Positions 46,279-63,186 are shown, numbered from the stretch's first letter. The stretch is DNA of 64,000 bases from an uncultured delta proteobacterium (GCA_963827685.1 CAWHBU010000002.1:640001-704000); one strand, 5' to 3'. Notes: generated from the sequence alone by a model not told the origin. Made by a program: numbers and translations.

Positions 46279-46335
46279 AGATAACGCGGCCATCAGCGAG
46301 AGCCCCTGGCAATCGGCTGCACGGCGTTGTTCGTC
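46279..46335 (-). other. attC site (57 bp) after the PLD-nuclease gene
   Basis: Minus strand GACGAAC-AAC-GCCGTGCAGCCGA...TCGCTGATGGC-CGC-GTTATCT. Confidence 0.7.
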
Positions 46336-46342
46336 GTTCCTA

Positions 46343-47548: not shown

Positions 47549-47581
47549 ATCATTCTTCCTCCGACGCTCTATTAGTATACG

Positions 47582-47653
47582 GAATACTTATTTGTCCTGA
47601 ATTTCGACTTCTACCATATCACAACCGATAGAGAGGTTCAACCGTAAGTATTT
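47582..47653 (-). promoter_or_regulatory. Repeat A copy 1: promoter/attI-like platform
   Basis: TTGAAC-17-TATGGT; homologous to 52171-52244. Confidence 0.65.
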
Positions 47654-47706
47654 CAGGGGTGTACTAAATCAGGAATGGGGTGTCAATGGGAATTGAGAGG
47701 GGGGAC

Positions 47707-47768
47707 CTTAATTGGATTGGAGAGATGAAGATATTTGGAGAGAGCTTAAATTGAGGAGTTTGCTTACA
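47707..47768 (-). repeat. Repeat B copy 1 (module start GTAAGCA-N6-TCAA)
   Basis: Homologous to 49703-49764. Confidence 0.75.
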
Positions 47769-47803
47769 AGTCACCGCTGACAACCATGTCGAGTAGATGA
47801 AAA

Positions 47804-48325
47804 CTATGGGTTGAAAGCGATGATATCTGGCTCAGACTTATTGACGCAATTCCAGACTCGAATTCCTTCCATTTCGGCAGCTTTTGCTAACCGTCCATCA
47901 CCCGTAATTAAGATTGGCTTAGAGTCGCTTTCAAATCTGGAGAAGTAATTTTTTTTTACTGAAACAATCTGAAATGCGTCTGAAACATCAATCGACTTAT
48001 CGTATTTTTTTATGAGATTTTCTACTTCGGTAAAAACCATCCTGTCTTTGATTTCTATGTCCTCTATTTCAATCATGTCACCCGCTGCCCAGGCTAAAAG
48101 CTGGTCACATGCGTAAAAATATTCTTCGTCAGATATTACTTTTTGATTGAAGTACTTTACTTTTAGCACTCCGAGAGCTTCCGCAAAACACAAGCTCGTC
48201 ATACAATAAAAATTTGACTCTTGCTCTTTGTTGAAATATGCCCTGAGAGTATCGCTTCCCTTTTCATCTATAAAGAGCTTCACGATTGCTGACGCATCCA
48301 AATAATGAATTCGAATCAGTTCCAT
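47804..48325 (-). CDS. PIN-domain (VapC-like) ribonuclease
   Basis: YLDASAIVKLF..E.GS, E.LGVL, DVSDAFQI, LITGD.RLA.AA..EG. Confidence 0.85.
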   Translation of the reverse strand: MELIRIHYLDASAIVKLFIDEKGSDTLRAYFNKEQESNFYCMTSLCFAEALGVLKVKYFNQKVISDEEYFYACDQLLAWAAGDMIEIEDIEIKDRMVFTEVENLIKKYDKSIDVSDAFQIVSVKKNYFSRFESDSKPILITGDGRLAKAAEMEGIRVWNCVNKSEPDIIAFNP

Positions 48326-48438
48326 AGGTGGCCTGCCGCTCTTCAGGTAGTGAATCGTTGGCTAAGGAATTGCGAAGAGCTAAAGAAGAGAGCAGATTCG
48401 CCGCTCACTACTTCAACCGTTCCCATTTTCGACCTGTC

Positions 48439-48840
48439 TTAAACCGCCTTTTCCTTATCAGCCCCATGCCCAAGATGTTTTGAAAGTGGCTCTTTGCATT
48501 CATGTACTACTCTCCCGGTTTCGGGGTCCGTAACGACTTCATGGTAAAGGTCGTTTTTGCGGTCAATGATGCGGCGGAGATTCATCCATTTACCCCACTC
48601 CCGATAAAGGTCATCACCGGAAACCTGCTCGATGAATGGCTTTCCGCCTCCGGAGTGGCGGCCTTTCGTGCCAAGTTTCTCCCTGAACGTACCCGTATCG
48701 AGAATTGTCACATGATGAATGCTCCGTGTCACCGACCCACACGAAGGGCAGGGATTAGTTTCTTCTACCGGGCAACTCGTGTTTTCTTCGAGTGCAAGGC
48801 CACAATTACCACAGAAAACAGAAGGATAATGTGCTGGCAT
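48439..48840 (-). CDS. Zn-ribbon hypothetical protein
   Basis: CGNCG..CPSCGS, C-terminal HECKEPLSKHLGHG; ATG at 48840 with GAGG RBS. Confidence 0.65.
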   Translation of the reverse strand: MPAHYPSVFCGNCGLALEENTSCPVEETNPCPSCGSVTRSIHHVTILDTGTFREKLGTKGRHSGGGKPFIEQVSGDDLYREWGKWMNLRRIIDRKNDLYHEVVTDPETGRVVHECKEPLSKHLGHGADKEKAV

Positions 48841-48879
48841 TATTGTTCCTCGGACGCTACCATTTTCAAACTGATTCTT

Positions 48880-48942
48880 TGTGGCTGTAATATACACTTT
48901 TCCCGAGTTTTTGGGAAGCGAAAGTTTTAGGAAGAACTCAAT
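48880..48942 (-). repeat. Repeat C copy 1 (TG-TATATT promoter block)
   Basis: Homologous to 49618-49680 and 50705-50767; each copy is directly upstream of a gene. Confidence 0.75.
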
Positions 48943-48959
48943 ATCCCATCCCTGACTTA

Positions 48960-49026
48960 AGAGGACCGCCAAAGAGGATCGGAGGAGGACTGGAGTGGTT
49001 GCCTCTAAATTCCAGCCTTAAACATT
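48960..49026. repeat. Repeat D copy 1
   Basis: 62/67 identical to 50862-50928 by manual alignment. Confidence 0.85.
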
Positions 49027-49100
49027 GAGTCGAATTGGGCAATAGCAATTTTTTGGAGTTTGAGGGGGATACCTACAATGATTCGGCAGCCCCTCTTTTT

Positions 49101-49616
49101 TCAGGGCTTCCGTTCTTTCTCAGGTAGCTTGCGGTAATCCCAAATGTCAATAACCGTGTTGATTTCGAGGAGAAGCACCATTATTCCTGGAACCACCCAC
49201 GACACCCCCGGAGTCCTCTGGAGTTCCTCGCTCTTGCCAATATAAAAGCAGATAAAGAAGAATAGCGCATAGAAAGCAAACACAAAAAGGGCGGAAATGA
49301 TGTTCAGGAGCCATGTTTCATCGGGATACGCCTTTTGATAGTCAATCCCCCAGAATCCGGCAATGGCTCCAGCGGATAGGAGGGCAAGGATCTCGAGGAC
49401 CGCGCGGTAGTCTCCGTTTGGAATCGCAGGACCATTTGCGAGGCGCTGAAATCCTAAAAAAGCAACCCCGTTGGCGATGAGAGACAGACCAAGGCAAATC
49501 CAGAAGCTCCAGTCCCGAAATTGATATTTCCTTGGGAGGTAAACGCTCCTGAGAAAAAGCGTTGACACCCAAGAGAGGAACAGGCCGATTATGGCAAATA
49601 TCATTCCGTTGTCCAT
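49101..49616 (-). CDS. Membrane protein, ~5 TM helices
   Basis: Hydrophobic segments; ATG 49616 lies 10 nt after the repeat C -10 box. Confidence 0.65.
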   Translation of the reverse strand: MDNGMIFAIIGLFLSWVSTLFLRSVYLPRKYQFRDWSFWICLGLSLIANGVAFLGFQRLANGPAIPNGDYRAVLEILALLSAGAIAGFWGIDYQKAYPDETWLLNIISALFVFAFYALFFFICFYIGKSEELQRTPGVSWVVPGIMVLLLEINTVIDIWDYRKLPEKERKP

Positions 49617-49617
49617 T

Positions 49618-49764
49618 TGTGGTTGTAATATACACCTTTTTCTAAAATTAGGGAATAGAAAGTTTCGGGAAGGACTCAATTTGTGTCGAGATTAGAAGAG
49701 GGCTTAATCGGATGGGAGAGATGAGGATATCACGAGAGCGCCTAAGTTGAGGAGCTTACCTACA
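49618..49764 (-). repeat. Module leader: repeat B copy 2 (GTAGGTA-N6-TCAA) + repeat C copy 2
   Basis: Manual alignment with 47707-47768 and 48880-48942. Confidence 0.75.
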
Positions 49765-49813
49765 CCTGCTCAGCTCGACATGGGACACGGAGTTGAAAAT
49801 TACTGAACCCTAT

Positions 49814-50647
49814 TTATGGGAGTGAGATACCCAAGAATGTCAGAGCCTGTTTTAGCGTTTCATATGCCGGTTTCATACTTGCTACAGTTTGGATAGAAAT
49901 CCCGATCGCAGACAGCATGCTTCGTAGTTTTGTAATATTTGGGTTCGGCCTCTTCAATTCTTCGCGGCCTTCGTCAACAAGTTCAATGATTTCTCCTTTG
50001 GGATGTGGCATCGTCACATCTAAACGGGATAACTCCACGCCGATTTCTTCGAGTACTTTAATCAGTTGTTCACGAACTTGGGTGTCGATACTCTGAGTTA
50101 CATTAGCAATTGAACTATCACCCGTCTGAATAGCTCCGACTGGAGAATAAATATTGAAAACTGTTGAAGCCGCCTCCTTTTTCTTCATTTCGACTTTCTT
50201 CTTTAAAGAATGCACGAACAGATCTATTTCCGTGCCAACTTTGGCTAAGGCAGCTCTCCTGGCGGAGTCAAGCTGGGGTTGAAACTGCGTAAACAAATCC
50301 GTTCCCCTGATAAGTTGCGCAGTTTCTCGTACCAGGTCATTTAAGGTTCCCATGGGCAAATGACGGTCTACCACCACTTTCAAGTCGCCCGCAAGGTTAT
50401 CATAATAGGATAACCCAGCTGTACTAAGAAACCGAAACAATGTTTGCCACACAAGCTGAGCCCTGATTTTAATAGCGACAGCACATAAATCAGCTACACG
50501 GTTGACGACCACACTTGAATACAGCATGTCTCGGGCACCCATCTCTGCCTTTATTCGCTCGACCTCTTTATGCAAGTTTTCATATTGCTCATTGATTTCG
50601 AGCTGTATCCTCTCTTGAGCAATCTTTAGAACTTGTTCGTCTAACAT
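49814..50647 (-). CDS. Hypothetical helical protein
   Basis: 277-aa ORF with AAGGAG RBS; VGAIQTGDSS..NV linker and helical C-terminal domain. Confidence 0.7.
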   Translation of the reverse strand: MLDEQVLKIAQERIQLEINEQYENLHKEVERIKAEMGARDMLYSSVVVNRVADLCAVAIKIRAQLVWQTLFRFLSTAGLSYYDNLAGDLKVVVDRHLPMGTLNDLVRETAQLIRGTDLFTQFQPQLDSARRAALAKVGTEIDLFVHSLKKKVEMKKKEAASTVFNIYSPVGAIQTGDSSIANVTQSIDTQVREQLIKVLEEIGVELSRLDVTMPHPKGEIIELVDEGREELKRPNPNITKLRSMLSAIGISIQTVASMKPAYETLKQALTFLGISLP

Positions 50648-50704
50648 ATCATACTCCTTTTTTACGTCGATGCCTAAGGATAATAGAACCGTCAGTCATC
50701 AATT

Positions 50705-51002
50705 ACAGATTGCAATATACATCTTTTTCAAACTTTTAGGAAGTGAACGTTTCAGGCAGAGCCAAATTCCCCCCCCATCCCTGGCTATTAATCAAGTATT
50801 TTAATAGGCGTCAAGCCGTGTACACGCCAAAAACGGTCTATGGGGGTAGCTGGTCAGGACGAGAGGACCACCAAAGAGGATCGAAGGAGGACTGGAGTGG
50901 TTGCCTCTAAATTCCGGCAGTAAACATTTAGAGGGGGATGGGGGGAAGAAAGACGCCAAATTTGCCAATCGGAGCTTCATAGACTTTGTCGGTCACACCT
51001 AC
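50705..51002 (-). repeat. Module leader: GTAGGTG-N6-ACAA + repeat D copy 2 + repeat C copy 3
   Basis: Core 50986-51002; D 50862-50928; C 50705-50767. Confidence 0.7.
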
Positions 51003-51055
51003 GACTTATTATTGGGGGCTATATTCAAGAATCGAGGGTTAGGGGTTGAAAGTGA

Positions 51056-51139
51056 GCATAACGCTCGCAATAACCTGCCGGCAAGAGACGGACACGAAGC
51101 GGCCAGCTATCGACGGTCAGTTTGATTGCGCTGTTGGCA
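51056..51139 (-). other. attC site (84 bp)
   Basis: Minus strand TGCCAAC-A-GCGCAATCAAACTGACCG...CGGCAGGTTATTGCGAGC-GTTATGC. Confidence 0.85.
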
Positions 51140-51142
51140 ACC

Positions 51143-51487
51143 TCATGTTTTCTCAGGGACCCCCGGGATCCCCCACCACAGACACCTTGGACAGACAACG
51201 TAGAGTGTTCTCTTCAATAACTCCTCATCGATATTCCTTCCAATCTTGATTAGTCCTTCCTTTTCAGCAGCCAAAATCGGTATTCCCTTCAACCTAAAGT
51301 TTACACCACTAAGGGAACAACTGGGGCAATCGCCTGCGTCCGTGAATTTCTCCTCCATTATGCGGAGCCAAGCTACCAATTGAGTTTCCACGAGCCCGTC
51401 CAAATCCACGCGATTGATCCTTGCATATTCCCGGAGTTTATTGACATCCTCCGCGGTTAACCGGGTGAGCGTCAATTTCATTTCCAT
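51143..51487 (-). CDS. Integron cassette gene: small protein with CPSC/CPRC Zn finger
   Basis: AAGGAG RBS right after attC; stop codon 3 nt before the next attC. Confidence 0.7.
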   Translation of the reverse strand: MEMKLTLTRLTAEDVNKLREYARINRVDLDGLVETQLVAWLRIMEEKFTDAGDCPSCSLSGVNFRLKGIPILAAEKEGLIKIGRNIDEELLKRTLYVVCPRCLWWGIPGVPEKT

Positions 51488-51505
51488 TTCTCATTCTCCT
51501 TTCTC

Positions 51506-51599
51506 TGCCACGATCAGCTCACCGATGACGGCCCTCAATGGTTGTCGAATCTGCAACTGACGTAGCGGGGCCGTCATTCGGTGCAGCGCCTGGTTCGGC
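51506..51599 (-). other. attC site (94 bp) with degenerate R' (GTGGCA)
   Basis: Minus strand GCCGAAC-CAGGCGCTGCACCGAATGACGGCCC...GGGCCGTCATCGGTGAGCTGATC-GTGGCA. Confidence 0.8.
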
Positions 51600-52151
51600 T
51601 TCCTTCTTCTTTGGGTTTTCTAAAATCGGAGAAAGCAGAGCGTGCACGACGACATCGTTGTACCAGGAGCACACACTTCGACAAAGCGTGATCTCAGAGT
51701 CGGAAATTAGAAATTCATCCAGCCGCTTTGGGTGGGTCACGCGGTTTCGCACTTCTATTGCGTGCAGAAAATCATTCCATGGTTTTGTTCCGACCTGCAG
51801 GTCCACGGATCCCGAGAACACTCGGTTCACGATTTTGTGGGTGAACCTCAGATTTTCTGGCAGGCGCAGGAACTTATCTGACTTACGTATATCTCCATTG
51901 GCCTTGAGGTCATAAGACACATCCCGAAGAAGGCTGTACTCACCGGTGGAGAAGAGTGGGCGCTTACTCTCCTTTGCCGCCTGCAACACCACTTGCTTTA
52001 GAATCCACACTGAACCTTCAAAGAAGGCAAATAGACTGCGTACGTATGCCCGGCGCGCAAACTGTGAATCATTGGCGTCAAGGTACTCTTCGGCGCTTCT
52101 GACGTCGTCGAGGAGGGCAATGATGGGTTTTGTAATGTCACCGATCTTCAT
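51519..52151 (-). CDS. Integron cassette gene: HEPN-like protein
   Basis: RNRVTH (Rx4H) motif; SQFARRAYVRSLFAFFEG helix; reads into attC (AEPGAAPNDGPAT). Confidence 0.7.
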   Translation of the reverse strand: MKIGDITKPIIALLDDVRSAEEYLDANDSQFARRAYVRSLFAFFEGSVWILKQVVLQAAKESKRPLFSTGEYSLLRDVSYDLKANGDIRKSDKFLRLPENLRFTHKIVNRVFSGSVDLQVGTKPWNDFLHAIEVRNRVTHPKRLDEFLISDSEITLCRSVCSWYNDVVVHALLSPILENPKKKEAEPGAAPNDGPATSVADSTTIEGRHR

Positions 52152-52156
52152 TTTCA

Positions 52157-52244
52157 GCCGAACAATAGACGAAATATCTTTTTTGTCCTAAGTTTCCATT
52201 TTTACCGTATCACAACGGATAGAGAGTTTCAAGCGTAAGTATTT
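52157..52244 (-). promoter_or_regulatory. Repeat A copy 2: promoter + attI-like junction
   Basis: TTGAAA-17-TACGGT, then GTTCGGC core (52163-52157) complementary to the cassette's GCCGAAC. Confidence 0.7.
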
Positions 52245-52297
52245 GTGAAGAAAAGAGATTTATTTTTGCTCTTTTCGTATTTGCTTTGTAATAACAC

Positions 52298-52318
52298 GTT
52301 ATACGAAATTCGTATAAC
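52298..52318. repeat. Perfect palindrome GTTATACGAA-A-TTCGTATAAC
   Basis: 10-bp arms seen directly, ~200 bp downstream of the recombinase. Confidence 0.8.
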
Positions 52319-52522
52319 ATGGGTTTATTGTCAGTCTGTATTCCCTGTTGATTTCGGATTGAAATCTGCACTACTCAGATTAAACGGTTAGATAACGAGG
52401 GAGTACTCCTTGCGAAGGATCTCGGACCACGGACTCCTTCCGCCTCGGACCTTTAGCTCTGGACACCCAATAATTTCAACCTCACCGGATTAAAAGATGA
52501 GCTACCTCCAATAGAGACGTTG

Positions 52523-53119
52523 TCAAACTCCAAACTGAAGGCTCTCTATCGCCTCCACCTTCCGGTCATCCGTGCTGTGTAGATACGCCTCTGTGGTCCG
52601 GATATGGGAATGGCCCATTAGGGCCTGGACGGTTTTGAGGTCGTTCCCCTTGTCAAGAATGGTTGTGGCGAAGGTATGACGCATCACGTGCGGATGAATC
52701 CGCTTCTGAATCAGGGCCTTCTTCGACACTGACTTGATGAGGCAGTCAACAGCCTTGGGAGTCAGGCCCTTTTCCTCGTAGGGACCATGTTTCCGGAGGG
52801 TGTTGAAAAGGGGATGTCCCGGATCTGCCCCGTTCCCGGTAGCCTTGTGATAGTCCTTTATGGCGAGGAGGGTCTCGGTCTTCAGGGGGATACGCCGGAA
52901 TCTCTTCCCCTTGCCGATAACATCAATAACAGCCTGGTTCCGGTAGGTCTTAAGATCCTCGACCTTCAGGCTACAAATTTCGGCCTTTCTTAATCCGGTG
53001 GTGAGTAGAGTGAGCAGAATGGCGTAATCACGTTTGCCTTGGAGGGTCCTTCGATCAGGGACCCGGAGAATGGCCTGGGCTTCTTCCTCGGTGAGAAATT
53101 CTGTCTCTTTCTTTTTCAT
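52523..53119 (-). CDS. Tyrosine recombinase, catalytic domain only (198 aa)
   Basis: TGLRKAE, GKGKR, HVMRH, LMGH, EAY; no N-terminal core-binding domain or IntI insertion; AGGAGG RBS. Confidence 0.9.
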   Translation of the reverse strand: MKKKETEFLTEEEAQAILRVPDRRTLQGKRDYAILLTLLTTGLRKAEICSLKVEDLKTYRNQAVIDVIGKGKRFRRIPLKTETLLAIKDYHKATGNGADPGHPLFNTLRKHGPYEEKGLTPKAVDCLIKSVSKKALIQKRIHPHVMRHTFATTILDKGNDLKTVQALMGHSHIRTTEAYLHSTDDRKVEAIESLQFGV

Positions 53120-53240
53120 GGTTCAACCTCCTTCCTGGTTGAATGATCCGAGCTTTGATGGTAGATTTACTTCGAGTGGGCATCATCCCGTTCCTTCCAG
53201 CCGTGAGATGCAACTCATGGCTTTTGGGATGAAGGCTCAC

Positions 53241-53405
53241 TCACTTCTTTTTTCCCTCCTTTTTCATGTTTTTTCTTTCTTTCCTGTCCAAATATTCATC
53301 GATTGCCCGGCGAATAATCTCGGCAACCGATAGCCCTGTTTTATTGGACAATGCCTGAAGTCTTGTGATCTCTGCTTCAGTAAGATGGTAATTTACCCGC
53401 TTCAT
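53241..53405 (-). CDS. Ribbon-helix-helix (CopG-like) DNA-binding protein
   Basis: MKRVNYHL..L..LS.KTGLSVAEIIRRAIDEYL. Confidence 0.85.
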   Translation of the reverse strand: MKRVNYHLTEAEITRLQALSNKTGLSVAEIIRRAIDEYLDRKERKNMKKEGKKK

Positions 53406-53414
53406 AGTCTGTAT

Positions 53415-53442
53415 ATTATACATACATAAATAGGATTGTCAA
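53415..53442 (-). promoter_or_regulatory. Consensus sigma70 promoter of the RHH-recombinase unit
   Basis: TTGACA-16-TATAAT, 9 nt before ATG 53405. Confidence 0.75.
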
Positions 53443-53555
53443 GAAAATTCTTTTCCAATCGATTTGTCACTATTGCAGATGGAGCTCTCGGCCACTACGC
53501 CAGCTTTCTACTCTACTGTTATCATCTTCCCACCCCAAGCTACTCCGGTGGCCAG

Positions 53556-53660
53556 ATTTGGGTAATATTTCTGTACCTTTTGTTACCCAAATGGTGATCG
53601 AATGAGCGATAATCAAAGGGGTTTTTGGACATCAAACCTCCCATGATTTGGGTAACAAAA
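53556..53660. repeat. Three ATTTGGGTAA boxes including a 15-bp perfect inverted repeat
   Basis: 53556-53565; TTTTGTTACCCAAAT 53578-53592 / ATTTGGGTAACAAAA 53646-53660. Confidence 0.8.
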
Positions 53661-54123
53661 AATCACTTAAAGAAAAAGGAGTGGCCTCCTGTACCCCCCT
53701 CTCCTAATCCATTACCCTTTGTTTCCCTGCCTTGTCCTCCCCTACCTACCCTTCATTCGGTTGGATAGGGTGAGAGAGTTCGTTAAAGGGAGTTCCCTTT
53801 GAACAGTTCTTCCTGGAAGCAGCAACGGAAAGCTTTATTCAATTGTGCGAATTTCAACTTGTAATTCTTTATTGGATAACCACTTCCATCTTCATTCTTA
53901 ATCTGGTTCACCAAAAATTGTAAGAACGGTTTAGTGCCCTTCCTTAAATTCACACAATAAGTGGAAAGCGAAAAATTCTTTCCGTTGAATGTGAAAAATC
54001 TTTCAATTTTGAACAAAATCCGTTCTTGAATGGAGCAAGCCTGGCATTCTACGCCCTAATCGAAATTCAAATTAATTCTTAGATATAAGATAGTTATGGG
54101 GTTGAAACCTACAAATTTACTTC

Positions 54124-54140
54124 TTGGCATATATTTCGCA
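54124..54140 (+). promoter_or_regulatory. Putative sigma54 promoter
   Basis: TTGGCATATATTTCGCA: GG(54126-27)-N10-GC(54138-39). Confidence 0.5.
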
Positions 54141-54187
54141 GTCAAATTGATTAAAACTTAGAAAAAAGGAGACAATTTAGGGGTTTA

Positions 54188-54361
54188 ATGGACGAGGACG
54201 TGGTTTTAACAACCCAAGAAGCCATCGAATATTTAAGAATCTCCAAACCCACCTTTCTGAAATATATCCGCCTTGGAAGAATCAATGCCGTTAAAGCGGG
54301 AAACGGCTGGAGAATCCACAAAGCCGAATTACATCGATTTCTAAAGCTAGGGGAGAAGTAA
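54188..54361 (+). CDS. Excisionase-like HTH_17 DNA-binding protein (57 aa; not in ORF track)
   Basis: MDEDVVLTTQEAIEYLRISKPTFLKYIRLGRINAVKAGNGWRIHKAELHRFL. Confidence 0.8.
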   Translation: MDEDVVLTTQEAIEYLRISKPTFLKYIRLGRINAVKAGNGWRIHKAELHRFLKLGEK

Positions 54362-54395
54362 CAAGGCCAATGCCTATTGATCGGAGTAAATTAAG

Positions 54396-57300
54396 ATGAG
54401 AGCTCAAAGCAAGACAAAGGGGCAACCTATGAAAGAATTAAACAAACCACGCCAACGAATCATTGAGCAGGATCGATTGGAAGATAGGAGAAAACAGGCA
54501 GAAGAGGCGTTGCGGGAGAGTGAGAATTACTATAGAACACTACTCGAAAACTTACCACAAAAAATATTTCTAAAAGATGAGAATTCAGTCTATTTATCCT
54601 GCAATGAAAACTACTCTCGGGATCTAAAAATCAGGCCCGATGAAATCACGGGGAAGATAGACTATGATTTTTATCCCAAGGAATTGGCCAAAAAATACCG
54701 GGCAGACGATAAAAGAATTATGGAGTCTGGAAAAACAGAAGATATCGAAGAGAGATATATCCAGGATGGAAAGGAGGTGATTGTCCATACAGTCAAAACG
54801 CCGATCAAAGATGAGAAAGGCAAAATCGTTTGTATATTAGGTATTTTCTGGGATATCACGGAACGCAAACATGCGGACGATGAATTGAAGAAATACCGTG
54901 AGCGCCTTGAGGAGCTGGTAGAAGAACGTACAGCTGAACTGAGAAATGCTAATGAACAGCTTCAACGAGAAATCAACGAACGCATGCGTACGGAGGAAGT
55001 GCTGCGAGAATACCAAAGAGCTGTTGAAGGTTCACAAGATATCATCGCTGTTGTCGATCAAAACTACAACTACCTACTTGTAAACAATGCCTTCCTCAAA
55101 TATCGAGGCATGGACAGAGAGCAGGTTATAGGGCGATCAGTTGCTGGAGTATTGGGTAAAGATTTTTTTGAGAGGGTTGTTAGGAAGCACTTAGATACCT
55201 GTCTTCAAGGTGAAGTTGTCCATTATGAGATGAATTACACGTATCCTAAGTTCGGTGAAAGGGATTTGCTGGTGTCGTATTTTCCTATCGAAGGTCCCGA
55301 TGGTGTCAATAGAGTAGCGAGTGTCATAAGCGACATCACCGAGCGTAAACGGACGGAGGATGCGTTGCGTGAAGGCGAGAAGAGATACCGCGCTCTTTTC
55401 GAGGGGTCTAGAGATGCGATCTATGTCACCGCTCGGGAGGGAGAGATCGTCGATGCCAACCCATCTATGGTAGATCTTTTCGGATATTGCAGGGAAGAGA
55501 TAATCGGCCTCAACGCCCGGAGGATGTATGTTGACCCCGAGGATCGGAGAAAGTTTCAGCAGCAGATAGAGCGGGAGGGATTTGTTAGAGATTATGAGAT
55601 AAAGTTACGCAAGAAAGACGGAATACAGATGGAGTGCCTGCTTACTGCGACTGTGCGGCGGGCCGATGCCGGTACCATTGTCGGATACCAGGGCATCATT
55701 CGTGACGTTACCGAGCTCAAGCAAATTGTGAATGAGCTACAGACCGAGAAACAAAGATTTCAAACTCTATCAGAGAATGCTCCGTTCGGGATGGTGATGA
55801 TTGATAAAGATGGCACCTTCAGATACATGAACCCTAAGTTTAGAGAATTATTCGGTTATGATTTAAATGATGTTCCTGATGGAAGAACCTGGTTTAGAAA
55901 AGCATACCCTGACCCAACCTACAGACATAATGTTATCTCCACCTGGGTTAATGACTTAGACAGTTCCAACCGAGGAGAAAAAAGGCCGAGGACTTTTACA
56001 GTGACCTGCAAAGACGGAACGGAAAAGATCATCAATTTTACTCCTGTGCAATTGGAGACAGGCGAAAATTTGATGGCTTGTGAGGACATCACTGAGCGAA
56101 AGCGAGCGGAGGAGGCACTCCGAGAAAGCGAAGAGAAATATAGAAGTATTCTTGAAAACATCCAGGACGGTTATATCGAGGTTGACCTTGCTGGTAATTT
56201 TACCTTCGTTAATGGTGTGGTCTGCAGACGTCTCGGATATTCCAGAGAGGAATTGATTGGAATGAACAACCGGCAGTATACAGATGAAACAACCGCTAAG
56301 AAAGCGTATCAGCTCTACAACAGAGTCTACAGAACAGGGGAACCAGTTAGGAACTTTGAGGAGGAAGTTATCAGAAAAGACGGGACTAGATGGATTTACG
56401 AACTTTCGGTATCTCTTATAAGGAACCCAGAAGGGAAACCGATTGGATTCCGAGGTATTTCTCGAGACATTACCGAGCGCAAACGTGCGGAGAAAGAAAT
56501 GGCAGCCCTTCAAGAACAGCTTCGGGAGTCTCAGAAGATGGAAGCCATTGGTCGCTTAGCGGGTGGCATTGCCCATGATTTCAATAATCTCCTTACCGTC
56601 ATCAAGGGCTACAGCCAACTCTCCCTTATGGAACTCAAAGAAGGTGATCCCTTGAGGGGAAACATCGAGGAGATCCAAAAAGGCTCCCAACGGGCGGCGG
56701 ATCTTACACGTCAGCTTCTGGCCTTCAGCCGGCGTCAGGTGATGGAGATGAAGGTACTTGATCTGAACACTCTTTTGAGAGATTTGGACAAGATGCTCCG
56801 CCGAATTATCGGTGAGGACATCGAATTGACCACTCTTTTGGCTAATGATCTGGGAAGGGTCAAGATCGACCCAGGGCAGATTGAACAGGTGATCATGAAT
56901 CTTGCAGTCAATGCGAAGGATGCGATGCCCTCCGGAGGGAAACTTACCATTGAGACGACCAATGCGGAGTTGGATGAATCCTATGCTCGTAATCATGCGG
57001 ATGTGAAACCTGGTCGCTATGTCATGTTCTCAGTGAGTGACACAGGGTTGGGGATGACTCCGGAAGTCAGGGAACGCCTCTTTGAGCCATTCTTTACAAC
57101 GAAGCAAAAGGGCAGAGGGACCGGATTAGGTCTCTCCACGGTCTATGGGATTGTGAAGCAGAGCGGAGGGAACATCTGGGTATATAGCGAACCCGGTCAT
57201 GGGACGACGTTTAAGATTTACCTTTCGAGGGTCGATGAGCCCTTGGAGCAATTGAGAGAGAAGACGACGAGGGAGGAACTTCTTCGTGGGAGTGAAACGG

Positions 57301-57656
57301 TTTTGGTGGTGGAGGATGAAGAGAAAGTTCGTAAGCTGACTGTGGAAATTCTTGGGAGGCAAGGGTACAGCGTTTTAGACGCGTCTCAAGGAGATGATGC
57401 TTTGGCTATTTCTGAGAAGCACAAGGGTCCGATTCATCTAATCTTGGTCGATGTTGTTATGCCTGGGATAAGCGGTACTGAGTTAACCAAACGCCTAGCG
57501 TTCCTTCGTCCAGAGACAAAGATACTCTATATGTCGGGCTACACAGACAATGCTATAGTTCATCATGGGGTCCTGGAGAAAGGAGTGAATTACATCCAGA
57601 AACCTTTTACGATAGACGAGCTAACTCGAAAGGTGAGGGAAGCGCTGGATAAATAA
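54396..57656 (+). CDS. Multi-PAS hybrid sensor histidine kinase (CckA-like)
   Basis: Five PAS/PAC units ending D(I/V)TE, GGIAHDFNNLL, NLAVNAKDAM, GTGLGL, C-terminal receiver. Confidence 0.95.
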   Translation: MRAQSKTKGQPMKELNKPRQRIIEQDRLEDRRKQAEEALRESENYYRTLLENLPQKIFLKDENSVYLSCNENYSRDLKIRPDEITGKIDYDFYPKELAKKYRADDKRIMESGKTEDIEERYIQDGKEVIVHTVKTPIKDEKGKIVCILGIFWDITERKHADDELKKYRERLEELVEERTAELRNANEQLQREINERMRTEEVLREYQRAVEGSQDIIAVVDQNYNYLLVNNAFLKYRGMDREQVIGRSVAGVLGKDFFERVVRKHLDTCLQGEVVHYEMNYTYPKFGERDLLVSYFPIEGPDGVNRVASVISDITERKRTEDALREGEKRYRALFEGSRDAIYVTAREGEIVDANPSMVDLFGYCREEIIGLNARRMYVDPEDRRKFQQQIEREGFVRDYEIKLRKKDGIQMECLLTATVRRADAGTIVGYQGIIRDVTELKQIVNELQTEKQRFQTLSENAPFGMVMIDKDGTFRYMNPKFRELFGYDLNDVPDGRTWFRKAYPDPTYRHNVISTWVNDLDSSNRGEKRPRTFTVTCKDGTEKIINFTPVQLETGENLMACEDITERKRAEEALRESEEKYRSILENIQDGYIEVDLAGNFTFVNGVVCRRLGYSREELIGMNNRQYTDETTAKKAYQLYNRVYRTGEPVRNFEEEVIRKDGTRWIYELSVSLIRNPEGKPIGFRGISRDITERKRAEKEMAALQEQLRESQKMEAIGRLAGGIAHDFNNLLTVIKGYSQLSLMELKEGDPLRGNIEEIQKGSQRAADLTRQLLAFSRRQVMEMKVLDLNTLLRDLDKMLRRIIGEDIELTTLLANDLGRVKIDPGQIEQVIMNLAVNAKDAMPSGGKLTIETTNAELDESYARNHADVKPGRYVMFSVSDTGLGMTPEVRERLFEPFFTTKQKGRGTGLGLSTVYGIVKQSGGNIWVYSEPGHGTTFKIYLSRVDEPLEQLREKTTREELLRGSETVLVVEDEEKVRKLTVEILGRQGYSVLDASQGDDALAISEKHKGPIHLILVDVVMPGISGTELTKRLAFLRPETKILYMSGYTDNAIVHHGVLEKGVNYIQKPFTIDELTRKVREALDK

Positions 57657-57665
57657 TATTGCAGA

Positions 57666-58598
57666 TTGAAAGAATTAAAGGCGATAAAAGAAGAATTATC
57701 GAATTTGAAGATGTTAGATAGCTTAAATATGAAACCCTTCCATTATAAAGTTCTTGTGGTGGATGATGAGGAACCAGTGAAGAGATTAATTGTGACTTTA
57801 TTATCTCAAAAGGGACATCAATGTATAGCCGCAGGTAGCGGTCTTGAGGCCCTGGAAAAAATTGAGAAAAACAAATTTGATGCTGTAGTCGCTGACATTG
57901 TCATGCCTGAAATGGACGGGCTTACCCTAACGAGAGAACTTTCAAAACATGATCAAAGCCCCCCTGTGATGATCATGACAGGGCATGCGGATGAATATTC
58001 AGCAGAAGATGCTATTGCTCTGGGGGCACGAGAATTTATTAACAAACCATTCTCGATTGCAGAATTTATTATCCGATTTTATAAAATGATGCATGACCAC
58101 AGAGGAGAGGAGGCGTTGCTGGCTCTATCCCTCACGGATGAACTTACAGGTTTGTATAATCGGCGAAGATTCTTTGTTTTGACAGACCAGTGTTTAAAGG
58201 TAGCCGTTCGGACAAAGAAAAGGCCGTTGCTCCTTTTCATCGATATGGATAACTTAAAATGGATTAACGACCACTACGGACATAATGAAGGAGACCAAGC
58301 ACTAATAGGCCTTGCCGATATCCTGAAACAGACCTTTCGTGAGTCTGATATTATTGCTCGGATTGGAGGAGATGAATTTGTAGTTCTATTGGAATCCACT
58401 GATGAGAACAGTGAGACAACGATAACTCGCTTGCATGAAAATGTGAGAGATTATAACGCCCAGAGGTCCAAATATACACTATCGATTAGCTTGGGAACTG
58501 CTCAATTTGATCCTGAATACCCTATTTCGATAGATGAACTCCTTTCTAAGGCGGACGCCTTGATGTATGCCCAGAAACGGAGAAGGTGGAGGGGTTAA
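57666..58598 (+). CDS. Response regulator diguanylate cyclase (REC-GGDEF)
   Basis: VLVVDD..DIVMPEMDG; RESD I-site; GGDEF. Confidence 0.93.
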   Translation: MKELKAIKEELSNLKMLDSLNMKPFHYKVLVVDDEEPVKRLIVTLLSQKGHQCIAAGSGLEALEKIEKNKFDAVVADIVMPEMDGLTLTRELSKHDQSPPVMIMTGHADEYSAEDAIALGAREFINKPFSIAEFIIRFYKMMHDHRGEEALLALSLTDELTGLYNRRRFFVLTDQCLKVAVRTKKRPLLLFIDMDNLKWINDHYGHNEGDQALIGLADILKQTFRESDIIARIGGDEFVVLLESTDENSETTITRLHENVRDYNAQRSKYTLSISLGTAQFDPEYPISIDELLSKADALMYAQKRRRWRG

Positions 58599-58800
58599 CA
58601 AATCGGAGAATTTATCGGAAACTCCAGGGGATCAGAGTAAAGGGATGGCCGATTTAATATTAAAATTAGCGAAGGGAATTCTTCAAAGAAACCATGGGAT
58701 GATGGTGGAAACCCACGGGAAAAGATCGGAGACTCTCATTGCTCTGAGATTCCCCATTGCGAGAAGAAAAGTAGGCTATTATGAACCGATTGCCCTATGA
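58567..58800 (+). pseudogene. Probable remnant of a histidine-kinase-like ATPase C-terminus
   Basis: DLILKLAKGILQRNHG...LRFP resembles the end of a HATPase domain; no N-terminal part. Confidence 0.35.
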
Positions 58801-58849
58801 AATAAGATGCAAATTTAGTAATAGAAAAACCTGAGGGCACAAGGAAACA

Positions 58850-59269
58850 TTGGAAGGATCATTTAACAAAAGAGAGAGAAGAAGCTATCCCAGGTTTATT
58901 GTTGATTTGCCTCTTGAATATCGGGATATGGATGGATCGTGTTTGCGTGGAGGGGTTCTTGTCAATGCAAGCGAGGGAGGCTTTCTTATCGAAGCAGTCA
59001 GAGACATCTCTGTTGGTACGGAATTAAATATTACTGTCCTGTTCCCAAAGGGGTTTGAATTGGCTAACTTCAAAGTGGTGGCGAAGATTGTGCGGAAGGA
59101 ACCTTATTGGAAAGAAGACTTGAAAGGAAACCAGTATTGGGAGGGATATCGGTATGGATTAGAATTGATCCAGATATTGGATGAGGATCGTTGGAAACTA
59201 AACCTCCTTCTTGGTGGCCGATTTGGATCTGAGGAGATTTCCCCCAGTCTACGCAGTCAGCATTATTAG
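58850..59269 (+). CDS. PilZ-domain protein
   Basis: ERRSYPRF, NASEGG; paralog of 7554-7952. Confidence 0.85.
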   Translation: MEGSFNKRERRSYPRFIVDLPLEYRDMDGSCLRGGVLVNASEGGFLIEAVRDISVGTELNITVLFPKGFELANFKVVAKIVRKEPYWKEDLKGNQYWEGYRYGLELIQILDEDRWKLNLLLGGRFGSEEISPSLRSQHY

Positions 59270-59283
59270 GAGTTTGGGTGCAG

Positions 59284-59427
59284 ATGGAAAAGGTTAAAGT
59301 TGTTGTGCAATTTAGCGATGGTAAGTTAATCAAGGGTTTTACTCAAGATTTTTTTCCGAATAAGGAACGTTTTCATCTTATTCCAGCTAATAACCCCCCT
59401 GGCGGGGCGAACAGGCAAGAAGGATAA
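59284..59427 (+). pseudogene. Truncated DUF6982-like gene (47 codons)
   Basis: MEKVKVVVQFSDGKLIKGFTQDFFPNKERFHL then breaks off; AGGAG RBS. Confidence 0.5.
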
Positions 59428-59637
59428 TCCAGACTCTTGATGGATGTTGTGGGGGAACAAAAAGCGTTGAGATCAAGAAGGCAATCCAGGAGTGGGGACA
59501 AAAGGTTGGAAAAATGTGAACCTCCGTGCTTTAGGAAAGGTATTCTTGATTCAATTTTTCTTCGCTGCTAAGTTCACCACATGCTCGCTTTCAATCGGAA
59601 ATCTTCACTTCTCAAAACAACTCTATCCACACTCTTT

Positions 59638-59726
59638 GTAGGTGAAGGTTTCAAATTCGGCTTGTGACCGGCGGGATTTGGAAAAAAGAGGACTTCTTCC
59701 TGTAATCTTGTTTTTCGATTTCTGCC
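59638..59726 (+). repeat. Repeat E copy 1 (starts GTAGGTG-N6-TCAA)
   Basis: Homologous to 63097-63186 (CTTGTGAC.GGCG.GA.TT.G..A.A...TTCTTCCTG). Confidence 0.75.
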
Positions 59727-60100
59727 CTTCTATGCAACATTACAAAGGGAAATCAGCAATATGAGGTAAATTATGGACGGAATTTTCCCCTTGATTTTCC
59801 ATGCACATGAGAGTATGTTGTATTTATAGTATTTCCCACCTGGCCCTAATTAACTTTACAACTTAACCTCTAACCTTCTTGGGTGCCGTATGAAGAGGAG
59901 ATTCCAGAAGGTGCCCCTATTTCGGTTCCAAAGGGATTCTTATGCCCCTTGGAGCCTTTTTAATTTTTAGATTCTTTTAATGTGTTAGGGGTCCTCCTAT
60001 TAACTCTACTCACAAATTGTGCCCTGACAATCGGGATTAAAAAAAAGGGAGGGGACTTCCGTTTTATCGGGGTTGATCGAATGAAAGGAGGTCGGTGCAA

Positions 60101-60808
60101 ATGAGGGAATTAAGCAAGTTGGACAGGACCTATAATTTCATCCTGAGACGTATGACGGAGACTGGCCAAGCGCCTTTTTATACGGAAATTGCCGCTGAGT
60201 TGAGGGTTTCCGTGGAAGAAGGTCGTAAAGCCCTCCATGATCTCTTTGGAGCGGGAATTCCTGGTTGGCTATTTCCGAATACAGACCTTATCGCTTCTTT
60301 TGCCCCCTTCAACAATCTTCCCAACCAGTACCGGATCACCGTCGAAGGGCAACAGAAGTGGTTTGGTCAGTGAGGGTTTGAGTCGCTGGCGGTCAGCTGG
60401 CTCTTCAAAAGAAAAACAGTGCGGATCGATGCTCCATGTCTTGATTGCGGATCACCCATCCGGGTGGAGATGAAAGATGGTATAATTAAAAATACTGAGC
60501 CCAAAGGGCTGATAGGATACACGTCTGTACCTTTTAAGGAATGGTTCAAAGACCTTCCTTATAGCTGAAGTACCATGAATCTCTTCCGGTCGGAAGAGCA
60601 CATTCGTAATTGGAGCGGTTTCAAATCGGGTACTGAAGAAGGGATCGTTGAATTGTCGGCCGTGGCTAAACTTTTTTCGATTGATGGTTTTAAGAGGCGT
60701 TTGGACCCGGATTATGTTTCCAATTATCAGAAGTATTTAAAGGAATTCATCTCTGCCCTTGGAGAGATGGGGAAAATCCGCCCATTCTGGTCACCGCCGG
60801 GTCCGTAA
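60101..60808 (+). CDS. MerB (organomercurial lyase)-like selenoprotein, 235 aa, two Sec
   Basis: In-frame TGA at 60371 (WFGQ-U-GFESL) and 60566 (PYS-U-STMNLFRSEEH); AAGGAGGT RBS; SECIS-like hairpins after both TGAs. Confidence 0.85.
60377..60409 (+). promoter_or_regulatory. SECIS-like hairpin 1
   Basis: GAG-TC-GCTG-[GCGGT]-CAGC-T-GG-CTC; GGTC begins 17 nt after the UGA. Confidence 0.65.
60575..60607 (+). promoter_or_regulatory. SECIS-like hairpin 2
   Basis: ATGAAT-CTCTTCC-[GGTC]-GGAAGAG-CAC-ATTCGT; GGTC begins 19 nt after the UGA. Confidence 0.75.
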
Positions 60809-60838
60809 CGGTGCGTGATTAGTTTTTACTTAATTACT

Positions 60839-60871
60839 GGCGGGGTCAGAAATGGCCCTGCCTCCCTTTTT
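60839..60871 (+). terminator. Intrinsic terminator after the merB-like gene
   Basis: GGCGGGGTCA-GAAA-TGGCCCTGCC then TCCCTTTTT. Confidence 0.6.
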
Positions 60872-61032
60872 GGCTTATGCTTGCTTTCTATTGGTAATCG
60901 TCAGCCTTGAAGATTATCTTGGACCGAAGAGTAGGTAGGTGCTATACGTAACAAAAAGGTGATTGAAAGTTAAGCTTATCAGGTTCATCATCTATCTGTA
61001 TTTCCTATTGATTCAAAGGAAAGGAGATAGAG

Positions 61033-62196
61033 ATGGACCAGAGGGCTATAGAATATTGCAGCGTCATTCCAACGAATGAATCCCTGACGGAATTTAGAAG
61101 TATTGATCGACGGGAGGGGATTCACCCATCCATTTTTTTATCCAAGGCCCATAGAAGAAAATCAGAGAGGCCGTGTTGTCCTGAGCTCGAGGCGAAGGCA
61201 AGAGCGTTTCAATGGGCACTGAATCGGGTTGCAGGCTGGGGCTTGCCGGGAAAAGAGCACGTTGAGGGCTATTTGCGGGACATGTGTAGGCGGGGTCTCA
61301 GGCCAAAAACGTACTTCAGTAACCTGACCGCAATCTATATTTTTCTCACTCTTATTAGAGGTTCCGGAAAGACCCGTTTGGAGGAGATCACCAAGGATGA
61401 TCTGGAGGTTTTTATTGAACATGAGCAGGATCGGGGGTTAATGATATCGACGGTGCGAACAAGGCTTCACTGTGTCAATGCTTTTTTAGGCTATCTGATT
61501 GAAGCAGGTGCGATTCGTAGTAATGTTCTGGCAAGAAGAATTCGTCTGAGGAAGCCCGAGACCTTACCGAGGGCCATAGATCCGGACGATGTGAAAGCAT
61601 TACTTTCTGTTATCAACAATCCCAGAGACCGGGCCATGGTGATGGTGCTTTTACGGACGGGGATGAGAATCGGTGAATTGCTGAGTACCAGGATGCAGGA
61701 TCTTCACCTCAAGGATCGAAGAGTGGATATCTACGAGGGGGAAAAGAACCGCATCGGAAGAGTGGTTTACCTCAGTGAAGATGCCATGCAGGCTTTGAAA
61801 GCCTGGATCAAGGTGAAGGATTCTCATAAAGTATATCTCTTTTATGCGACGGGCAAGAACGCCATGTCCTATACGACCGCACACCTCATGTTCAAAGGCT
61901 ACCTGACGAAAGCCGGTCTTGCCCATAAGGGGTATTGCCTCCATGCCCTACGACATACGTTTGCCAGTGAGCTTTTAAATGCCGGTATGCGCCTCGAATG
62001 CCTCCAACCGCTGATGGGGCATACCTCTGTGGATGTGACGCGGCGCTATGCGCGGCTCACGGATAAGACCAGAGAGCAAGAGTACTTCAGAGCCATGACG
62101 ATTATAGAAAGGGGGGAGCTGAATGGATCTTACCGACTCGATCATCAGGTACAGGCGTTTCTTGAAGAGAAGGAACGTCTCACCGAATACCGTTAA
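61033..62196 (+). CDS. Tyrosine recombinase A
   Basis: SAM-like N-terminal domain, RTGMRIGE, GEKN, HALRH, LMGH, RRY. Confidence 0.92.
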   Translation: MDQRAIEYCSVIPTNESLTEFRSIDRREGIHPSIFLSKAHRRKSERPCCPELEAKARAFQWALNRVAGWGLPGKEHVEGYLRDMCRRGLRPKTYFSNLTAIYIFLTLIRGSGKTRLEEITKDDLEVFIEHEQDRGLMISTVRTRLHCVNAFLGYLIEAGAIRSNVLARRIRLRKPETLPRAIDPDDVKALLSVINNPRDRAMVMVLLRTGMRIGELLSTRMQDLHLKDRRVDIYEGEKNRIGRVVYLSEDAMQALKAWIKVKDSHKVYLFYATGKNAMSYTTAHLMFKGYLTKAGLAHKGYCLHALRHTFASELLNAGMRLECLQPLMGHTSVDVTRRYARLTDKTREQEYFRAMTIIERGELNGSYRLDHQVQAFLEEKERLTEYR

Positions 62197-63016
62197 GCAC
62201 TATTTAAACAGTCTGAAGCACTTTGTTCTCTGGCTGGATGAGCCGATCGAAAAGGTCACCTACAGAAAGGTTGACGAGTATATGGATGACCTGCTTGGAA
62301 AACGGCTAAAACCTAAGACCGTCAACTGTTATCTCAACAGCATCTGTCAGTTTTACCACTACCTCTGCGAAGAAGAGGGACTCCGGATCGTCAACCCTGT
62401 GAAGAAGCCAAATATCATGAAGCTTCCCAGAGGGCTTCCCAAACATCTGAGAGACGAGCACATAGAGATCCTCTTCAAGCATCTGAAAGGGCGAAGGGAT
62501 CAGGCCATCTTCACGCTCATGCTCCGATGCGGATTACGGGTAGAAGAAGTGGCTCACCTTTCCCTCAGCAATATTGATCTGAAACGCAGAATGCTGCTCA
62601 TCCAGGATGGCAAGGGTGCGAAGGATCGGATTGTCTATCTCAGCAACGATGCCCTTCATGCTCTCCTGGAATATCTAAGGGTGCGACCCGCAAATAAAGT
62701 AAGAAAGGTTTTTCTTGTAGAGAAAGGGCCTCTCAGCGGGCAACCTTTATCCATTCGCGGCATCCAGAAACGGATGGAATATTATGCCCGCAAAACAAAC
62801 TTGAGAATCTCCTGCCACCATCTTCGCCATACGATGGCAACGCAGATGTTGAATGCGGATGCGGACCTCTCTACCATCCAGGATCTTTTGGGGCATAACT
62901 CTATCAGGACGACCCAACGCTACTGCCGGGTATCAAACCTCAAAGTACAGAGAGATTACTACAAAGCCATGGAGGTGATCATGCAACGAACGGCTGGCAA
63001 CCCAAATAATCCTTGA
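62123..63016 (+). CDS. Tyrosine recombinase B (XerD-like)
   Basis: SPNTVKHY, RCGLRVEE, GKGAKDR, HHLRH, LLGH, QRY; overlaps recombinase A by 74 nt. Confidence 0.92.
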   Translation: MDLTDSIIRYRRFLKRRNVSPNTVKHYLNSLKHFVLWLDEPIEKVTYRKVDEYMDDLLGKRLKPKTVNCYLNSICQFYHYLCEEEGLRIVNPVKKPNIMKLPRGLPKHLRDEHIEILFKHLKGRRDQAIFTLMLRCGLRVEEVAHLSLSNIDLKRRMLLIQDGKGAKDRIVYLSNDALHALLEYLRVRPANKVRKVFLVEKGPLSGQPLSIRGIQKRMEYYARKTNLRISCHHLRHTMATQMLNADADLSTIQDLLGHNSIRTTQRYCRVSNLKVQRDYYKAMEVIMQRTAGNPNNP

Positions 63017-63096
63017 CATGAGAAAGAAATTATGAAAACTTAAACACTACGCAACATCATAATATCAATAGTAAATACGGATTATGTTACGTATAG

Positions 63097-63186
63097 GTAG
63101 GTGAAAGTTTCAAGCTGGACTTGTGACTGGCGAGACTTAGGAAGAATGTGGATTTCTTCCTGAAAGAGTGATTTTCAAATCTCGCC
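63097..63186 (+). repeat. Repeat E copy 2
   Basis: Homologous to 59638-59726. Confidence 0.75.

Follow-up and report, generated by a model that had tools for sequence, protein, structure and literature searches.

The stretch of DNA considered here, called the window throughout, comprises 64 kb from an uncultured delta proteobacterium (GCA_963827685.1, CAWHBU010000002.1:640001-704000), whose genome of 5.23 Mb carries the label G000 and was compared with 14 congeners. The window contains an accessory island with a tRNA-Arg gene at its edge, modules behind promoter blocks of their own, a small recombinase element and, near its right end, an insertion-sequence-like (IS-like) element of 2.16 kb with two Xer-like tyrosine recombinases, which is termed the two-recombinase element (TRE). 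Between the genes there recurs a short motif, GTAGGTR-N6-WCAA. The relation of this motif to an intergenic repeat and to TRE is the subject of this report.

A first-pass annotation of the window had described the motif as a rare intergenic word that bounds promoter and gene modules. Exact matches (GTAGGTRNNNNNNWCAA) are indeed found five times, on the minus strand at 49076, 49763 and 51002 and on the plus strand at 59638 and 63097, as had been claimed, against 0.04 expected from dinucleotide-preserving shuffles, none of which (n=100) got to five. The degenerate sixth copy that had been listed, GTAAGCA-AACTCC-TCAA, is likewise present at 47767 on the minus strand. The intergenic position also holds: all six copies lie outside open reading frames (ORFs) of at least 50 aa or overlap only the last codons of one, at about 24-63 nt from the preceding stop codon or attC-like hairpin. 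The pair TTCTTCCT-N35-39-ATTACA, by which the leader of block C had been linked to that of the 59638 copy, has two matches, at 48936 (minus) and 59694 (plus), where 0.01 would be expected. It was also correctly noted that GTAGGTG is the direct repeat flanking the twin-recombinase element (60935-60941 and 63097-63103). The genome as a whole has 16 exact matches, about 3 being expected when the window shuffle figure is scaled up without a genome-wide shuffle, and 5 of the 16 fall inside one 14-kb stretch. The genome-wide clustering that the annotation had asked about was observed, as the motif is concentrated in accessory arrays of co-oriented genes, directly before promoter blocks. The copies in the window are not independent, however, because five of the six are members of one longer repeat family; the copy at 49076 is without the 68-nt part.

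This longer family is an intergenic repeat of about 68 nt, of which the motif forms the 3' end. With an nhmmer profile built from nine copies, 48 copies were found in the genome (E < 0.01). Its consensus begins with TTATGC, continues with CTTTCAAnCCGTAATCnTCAA and a variable part of about 22 nt, and closes with TGAAGACTT-GTAGGTG; in the genome-wide match contexts, about 55 nt separate the motif from a conserved upstream box, CTTTCAAyC..GTAATC. A rough ORF map places 46 of the 48 copies between genes. The gene before the repeat is co-oriented with it in 39/46 cases and the gene after it in 29/46, the remaining 17 being convergent. The repeat is thus linked more closely with the 3' end of the gene before it than with the gene after it. 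It usually stands after a hairpin of the upstream gene, and it precedes interchangeable promoter blocks. The hairpin in the largest group (about 14/48 copies) is a conserved terminator-like one with a T-run, while about 6/48 copies follow an attC-like imperfect hairpin with an abutting GTTRRRY-like box. The 3' limit of the repeat is sharp at the core, and very different right-hand partners start exactly there.

The repeat is lineage-specific. A sequence-only covariance model of it, R1, finds matches in all 14 congeners (9-93 copies each, often at contig ends); among 10 other genera of the family, 5 have it, and beyond the family it is seen in just one of 16 genomes. At the equivalent of the tRNA-Arg locus in the congener G010, no copy is present within 20 kb. 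No fold of the repeat was supported: RNAalifold gave no consensus on either strand for 41 copies, and single folds disagree with each other. A hairpin across the core was not supported either, the complementarity of the arms being 5.14 against an expectation of about 5.03 and a measured shuffle mean of 4.89, with 244 of 2000 shuffles reaching 5.14. With no covariation between the arms and no conserved fold, the repeat is therefore not an attC-like hairpin, and the same analyses found no palindromic hairpin of the REP/REPIN type.

The element that uses the end of this repeat is TRE. It is present in three copies in the genome, at 99.6-100% identity, and its ends, CTATACGTAAC... and ...GTTACGTATAG, are perfect 11-bp inverted repeats. 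All three copies abut the 68-nt repeat on the left, and the right end of all three is followed by GTAGGTG, reading GGTAGGTG. The core in the left flank is GGTAGGTG in two copies and AGTAGTG in one. The TRE of the window splits a complete site, the unoccupied paralogue of which is seen at 59575-59710. Both TRE proteins belong to Phage_integrase (Pfam), and their genes overlap. Along with the 198-aa recombinase of the small element, they are Xer-like 'simple' tyrosine recombinases that score below every equivalog cut-off. No other ORF of at least 50 aa was found on the sense strand of TRE, only short antisense ORFs within the recombinase genes. If the ends of TRE were joined, they would give an 11-bp arm, GTAGGTG and an 11-bp inverted arm, a predicted dif-like layout.

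Through a scan of species-representative genomes, the TRE family was found to comprise 80 loci from many environmental lineages. In the closest clade (16 loci), the R1 repeat ends at the left end of the element in 6/16 loci and is recognisable by eye in 13/16; the right end is nearly always GGTAGGTG, and the left flank holds target variants such as GTAGATG, AAGGTG and GAGGATG. Other clades have a different 7-8-bp word in the left flank and at the right end, for instance CAAATAC, CTTCCTG, CATACTT, TCTAACTG and others; such clade-specific cores were read for the closest clades, few of the more distant loci being resolved. The length of the element is 2.05-2.48 kb in 39 of the 41 loci with both ends found, and TRE is therefore without cargo there. 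In two longer relatives, L081 and L088, the ends are 3.0 and 4.0 kb apart, and a passenger gene might lie between them. At another locus (L069, CAZINZ010000061.1, ~1275-1388), a sister TRE with the CAAATAC core stands about 55 nt downstream of a 68-nt repeat ending in GTAGGTG; several cores may therefore sit side by side in one intergenic unit.

Table. Features of the window and of the related gene arrays (window coordinates unless a contig or locus is named)
Feature	Position	Strand	Basis or remark
tRNA-Arg(CCT), edge of accessory island	44579..44653	+	ARAGORN; Rfam 64.6 bits
attC-like hairpin after PLD gene, then first ~23 nt of repeat and GTTAGCC box	46250..46340	-	by eye; nhmmer partial match C2:686254-686278, E 6.6
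P2 promoter block, TTGAAC-17-TATGGT, before PLD gene	47570..47660	-	second copy 52166-52244, 84% self-match
Degenerate-core repeat copy, GTAAGCA at 47761-47767, overlapping PIN gene stop codon	47761..47828	-	nhmmer E 5.8e-10
Block C family promoter, TTCTTCCT...GTGTATATT, before Zn-ribbon/PIN pair	48886..48936	-	similar blocks ~49600-49680, 50715-50760
Motif copy GTAGGTA-N6-TCAA, no 68-nt repeat to its left	49060..49076	-	no nhmmer match at E < 10
Repeat copy truncated at 5' end, core GTAGGTA	49757..49826	-	nhmmer E 3.7e-9, model positions 12-72
Full repeat copy, core GTAGGTG	50996..51065	-	nhmmer E 4.6e-9; 86% identity to C6:134951-135014
attC-like hairpin ending GTTATGC, directly before repeat	51066..51140	-	by eye
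Small recombinase element	52403..53815	-	RHH gene 53241-53423; Xer-like recombinase 52523-53119 (198 aa); Pfam, NCBIfam
Unoccupied repeat copy, core GTAGGTG at 59638-59644	59575..59644	+	nhmmer E 1.2e-8
Unit A, GTAGGTG on left, CTTCCTG (59704-59710) on right	59645..59710	+	BLAST blocks begin and end at both cores
U4 promoter/leader block, high-copy in genus	59711..59960	+	query positions 1-240 matched in 12/14 congeners, among matches listed
MerB-like cargo gene between two sites	60095..60808	+	TGA=U translation; Pfam MerB 61.8 bits
Repeat copy ending in GTAGGTAGGTG, TRE left junction (attL)	60871..60941	+	nhmmer E 3.5e-6
TRE	60942..63096	+	genes 61033-62196 (387 aa) and 62123-63016 (297 aa); Pfam, NCBIfam Xer-like
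Right-junction core GTAGGTG (attR) and second unit A copy ending in TTTCTTCCTG	63097..63162	+	motif match, BLAST, junction reading
c-di-GMP-I riboswitch aptamers	L175:5989-6063 = C2:1086989-1087063; L174:5259-5336 = C8:49259-49336	-	Rfam

The TRE junctions bear out the earlier assignment of the core to a tyrosine recombinase, as GTAGGTG can be read from them as the crossover or coupling sequence of TRE, 7-8 bp long. If GTAGGTG is such a core, the motif would therefore mark a multi-copy attachment site: it is probably a 'landing pad' that closes the lineage-specific intergenic repeat of about 68 nt and is used by TRE. The site lies between the terminator- or attC-like hairpin of the upstream gene and one of a few interchangeable promoter blocks; TRE always has the core at its own right end, and the left flank has the version of the target. 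CTTCCTG, the core of a sister clade, is a second landmark of the same intergenic units. Recombination at the cores might sometimes swap the content to the right of the site and thus add to the mosaic of promoter and gene modules, although it would be neither the only kind of junction nor demonstrably the main one.

The blocks to the right of the core fall into several families, including block B, which start abruptly there and all carry promoter-like -35/-10 pairs, predicted by reading the sequence. Block C is a unit of about 215 nt, with TTGACC-17-TATATT and a conserved leader of about 110 nt, of which G000 has 20 copies. A P2-type block is also seen before an FMN-reductase gene at the loci L197-L199. 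In several promoter classes the core GTAGGTG lies about 50-65 nt upstream of the -35 box, and in several blocks CTTCCTG lies about 10 nt upstream of it. The MerB module is bracketed by two copies of the core with unit A.

TRE is not alone in using the repeat. Two identical copies of an IS110-family element lie right after the GTAG of the repeat (C6:135019-136212 and C3 near 917046). An IS3-family element of 1.24 kb is present in 15 copies that are more than 99% identical (e.g. C3:472235-473476, C1:57947-59188) and has 3-bp duplications; most of its copies are at the GATTnC..GTAATC box of the repeat. One repeat copy on contig C1 holds an IS3-family element and a TRE together. Where a long match on the left flank stopped at the core (C3:473474 against C3:479698), the cause was an IS3-family copy inserted in the repeat, and this is therefore not an independent breakpoint.

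The small recombinase element has one end exactly at CTTCCTG (53809-53815, + strand). It measures about 1.4 kb and occurs as three copies and a fragment, with paralogues on C6 (89%; C6:132129-133550) and C4 (82%; C4:172564-173288). Its recombinase consists of the catalytic domain only, and the C6 copy has imperfect terminal inverted repeats. Judged by its high contig depth in three metagenomes from wetland and sediment, the element seems to be common. At this CTTCCTG, the window and G004:C141 are alike on the right (95-98%) and unlike on the left, while the window and the C6 paralogue are alike on the left (89%) and unlike on the right; a three-way junction thus falls at the word.

The comparison between species gave a mixed answer to the annotation's question of whether breakpoints in relatives coincide with the core. 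Among 13 inter-species segments of homology that touch the repeat, 6 end within 10 nt of the 3' edge of the core, examples being the PagL and Memo cases. When G000 is compared with G005:C163 and with G009:C56, the identity is about 97% through the upstream gene and the repeat, and the sequences are unrelated at GTAGGTG or 9 nt past it. This part of the expectation stood. As for the rest, 5 of the 13 segments end at the 5' edge of the repeat and 2 continue into the promoter block.

These last seven segments are the first of several points that weigh against a landing pad used by TRE. Homologous exchange inside a shared repeat would likewise leave segments that stop at its edge, and such ends are no proof of site-specific exchange. 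The exact GTAGGTR is kept in only 28 of the 48 repeat copies. The arms of the chromosomal site, TGAAGACTT, are unlike those of TRE, TACGTATAG, and the dyad may therefore be bound by something else, e.g. a regulator. In the search for circle junctions that the annotation had proposed, the Logan contigs of the runs X1, X3, X4 and X5 showed no clean excision or circle joint, only short, low-depth joints between repeated blocks.

The arms were read from 46 unique repeat copies with an exact core, 22 of them from this genome and 24 from relatives. Their consensus is gAnTGAAGACTT-GTAGGTG-nAAnCnnCAA, in which gAnTGAAGACTT is the left arm and nAAnCnnCAA is the weaker right arm. GTAGGTR-N6-WCAA would accordingly be the central region and the right arm of a putative site that is imperfect and roughly dyad-symmetric. 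As a description of the right side, N6-WCAA is too narrow; it fits just 7 of the 46 copies, and what is conserved there is nAAnCnnCAA. The dyad may be either a recombinase site or an operator.

The annotation had gone further and proposed that cargo was stacked as self-promoted cassettes by recombination at this core. In its strict form this means that a promoter and gene module between direct cores is excised as a circle and re-inserted, with the recombinases of TRE or of the RHH element acting in trans. We consider such cassette boundaries unlikely. A broader version, which we hold to be just as doubtful, is a chromosomal, non-integron cassette system of the Syntrophales, in which self-promoted modules would be exchanged by Xer-like pairs at GTAGGTG or CTTCCTG and TRE-like elements would supply the enzymes. 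The gene arrays speak for some such process. A 46-kb stretch of one congener (G002:C17:265-310 kb, loci L186-L188) holds at least 25 co-oriented, functionally unrelated single genes, among them those for an esterase, a nitroreductase, an MFS transporter, a beta-lactamase-fold protein and a methyltransferase. It has 27 block-C matches, and most of its genes stand behind their own copy of the block of about 215 nt, which starts at a GTAGGTG-like word. Similar arrays are present in G000 (C2:13-39 kb, C8:38-65 kb), G009, G010 and G012. Single genes common to the arrays of different species are 88-97% identical and have different neighbours, as against 74-79% for core genes (secretin, radical-SAM). 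The 6 of 13 segment ends at the core, as well as the bracketed MerB module of the window, point the same way.

Against this, no shared gene or segment with the core on both sides, and no module found core-to-core in two contexts, came out of the inter-species comparison. The FMN-reductase gene, examined at six loci, is alike in all of them only from the ribosome-binding site (RBS) to about 10-25 nt past the stop codon, and it stands behind three promoter types. The HxlR gene, geneX, geneY and the cupin-HTH gene have their junctions away from the core; where junctions were followed base by base, they were at the RBS, at the stop codon or inside the promoter block. Most units of the G002 array have a degenerate repeat, TRE lacks cargo in 39 of 41 loci, and many of the genes that adjoin the repeat appear to belong to ordinary metabolism (AFOR, radical SAM, Memo/AMMECR1). 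The island of the window is itself not comparable, as its 277-aa cargo protein was found in none of 54 other genomes of the order and, among the matches listed, the region 46150-52000 had none in 5 congeners beyond short repeat blocks. Of the stacking claim, then, the arrays of self-promoted single genes with exchange between species stood, and transfer of whole modules from core to core was not supported. Stacking of cargo as cassettes by recombination at the seam between repeat and promoter is possible, but much of the observed shuffling has other junctions.

It was also considered whether the repeat is a cis-acting unit, made up of a terminator-side spacer, a dyad operator and a promoter (a reused or 'mobile' promoter region), which has no recombination role of its own and spreads by duplication, gene conversion or homologous exchange. 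Mobile elements would then simply take advantage of it as a target that is abundant and harmless. The regular distances of GTAGGTG and CTTCCTG from the -35 box in several promoter classes would suit such a unit, as would a dyad that does not resemble the TRE arms. The use of the repeat by three unrelated types of mobile element has a parallel in REP sequences and pdif sites (PMC10132070), and the same gene behind different promoter blocks across species recalls the 'promoter reuse' described in PMC3575422. But the repeat ends sharply at the core, where very different partners start; a convergent downstream gene in 17/46 cases is odd for a promoter-linked element; and no regulator has been identified. 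A purely cis-acting unit is therefore rather improbable.

The least probable account, to which we give very little credence, is that the arrays are integron-derived attC clusters without an integrase, the 68-nt repeat being the 5' end of promoter-bearing cassettes moved by IntI: the GTTRRRY-like box closing an attC-like hairpin where about 6/48 repeat copies start (by eye) and the integrases within the genus would favour it, but plain terminator hairpins precede more than twice as many copies, the window is without IntI, the attC-likeness was judged by eye without a model and the repeat is absent around the intI loci examined. Integron integrases (TIGR02249) score above the curated cut-off in 4 of the 15 genomes of the genus, and G000 has a truncated one (C3:782919-783275; 141 aa, 191 bits against a cut-off of 265); further intI loci are G013:C87, G013:C108, G001:C49, G011:C108 and G006:C149. 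In 62.6 kb around the intI loci of G000, G001, G006, G010, G011 and G013 there were 0 R1 matches, and no repeat family was seen beside intI of G013. The recombinases of the window score 72-104 bits against the TIGR02249 cut-off of 265. The window has two attC-like hairpins, its remaining modules having plain terminators or nothing, and others adjoin the repeat at C2:446154 and C6:134892-134950 (by eye). Each module has its own predicted -35/-10 block, unlike the promoterless cassettes of integrons. This is not an integron system, but cassettes from integrons may be feeding the same arrays.

The arrays nevertheless share several features with those of integrons: co-oriented, unrelated single genes, a conserved element 3' of the genes, tyrosine recombination and a few adjoining attC-like hairpins. 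They differ in that IntI is missing beside them, that the repeat has neither a conserved hairpin nor covarying arms, and that each module has a promoter of its own.

The annotation had recognised no described analogue of the system, and this did not hold, as dif modules and elements of the Tn554/SE type are close ones. The nearest descriptions in the literature are those of dif modules, of Tn554/SE/RIT/GInt elements and of promoter reuse; no description of the TRE family or of the 68-nt repeat was found in that literature, the search of which left IS databases (ISfinder, TnCentral) and supplementary tables outside. TRE resembles Tn554 and the SE elements as described in PMC10214605: there is a pair of tyrosine recombinases, of which one is ordinary and the other longer, the terminal inverted repeats are imperfect or perfect, and insertion is highly specific for its target, which is not duplicated. 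A short word at one end comes from the donor site, and the other flank has the version of the target; for TRE this pattern is read from static copies. SEs are further defined by an intA-tfp-intB operon with srap (PMC10214605). Unlike Tn554/SE, TRE has just two recombinase genes and no TnpC/Srap-like or Tfp-like gene, and both its proteins are Xer-like. Its longer protein has 387 aa, and there is no TnpB-type recombinase of more than 600 aa as in Tn554. The carried word is 7-8 bp as against 6 bp in Tn554/SE. The hosts of TRE are Syntrophales, Desulfobacterales and other environmental metagenome-assembled genomes, and it is from sequence alone that TRE is known here.

In dif modules (pdif, Acinetobacter plasmids) and IMEX, likewise, accessory modules are split by short Xer-type sites with 11-bp arms and shuffled between replicons, and dedicated IS elements target the sites (PMC10132070, PMC13141974, PMC6449649). 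These are 11-6-11 sites of the host XerC/XerD, whereas the joined ends of TRE give a predicted 11-7-11. The repeat sites are, in addition, chromosomal direct repeats with a 7-bp centre, inside a 68-nt repeat next to promoters, and the sole element shown there carries its own recombinase pair. REP, BIME and REPIN sequences are similar as short, lineage-specific, high-copy intergenic repeats that follow genes, break assemblies and are a nest for several IS families; unlike them, the 68-nt repeat has no palindromic hairpin consensus, has a recombinase core at its end and is linked to promoter blocks. Promoter reuse, or putative mobile promoters, is alike in that highly similar promoter regions stand before unrelated genes (PMC3575422), here block C, P2, U4 and others. 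The present blocks differ in their link to a defined repeat upstream that contains recombinase cores, and in forming arrays that extend over tens of kb.

What emerges is a compact IS-like family whose members encode two Xer-like tyrosine recombinases, with a 7-8-bp core particular to each of the closest clades, and a genus-wide repeat on which three unrelated kinds of mobile element land. Next to these stand long arrays of unrelated, individually promoted genes with members exchanged between species. If recombination at the core drives this exchange, it would be a second, integron-independent route to chromosomal cassette arrays, and two-recombinase elements would be a means of programmable site-specific integration at a short core that is defined by the clade. 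If not, the case still illustrates how insertions are diverted from genes by a harmless repeat between them.

Some further observations concern the cargo and its leaders. The MerB-like gene is seen as three short ORFs; with selenocysteine at two in-frame TGA codons (U93, U158), they would become one 237-aa homologue of MerB (alkylmercury lyase). The Pfam MerB match spans both TGA positions. We take U93 and U158 to resemble the two catalytic cysteines of MerB.

The leader of block C was considered as a riboswitch and rejected, as the consensus fold is -1.86 kcal/mol with 1 of 10 pairs compensatory. One block C copy scanned with Rfam by E-value gave chance-level matches only, and at the gathering score the tRNA is the sole Rfam match in the window. 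In the gene arrays, two c-di-GMP-I riboswitch aptamers score above the gathering score and are the sole Rfam matches there; one of them stands before a dienelactone-hydrolase gene.

Other short sequences also recur. Upstream of the RHH gene of the small recombinase element, TTACCCAAAT is found three times at ~53580-53660, twice direct and once inverted, and may be an operator or a recombinase site. A perfect 21-bp palindrome, GTTATAC-GAAATTC-GTATAAC (52298-52318), separates the small recombinase from the promoter that follows. It was rejected as a general site, being unique in the genome; a second occurrence was seen for its right half only, where the attC-like hairpin at C6:134892 begins. Lastly, CACTTGTGGATAAyTAATTTGCG recurs at the starts of successive modules in one array (C2:12150-13362; G009:C256:7400-7436), where it may be an operator or a junction.

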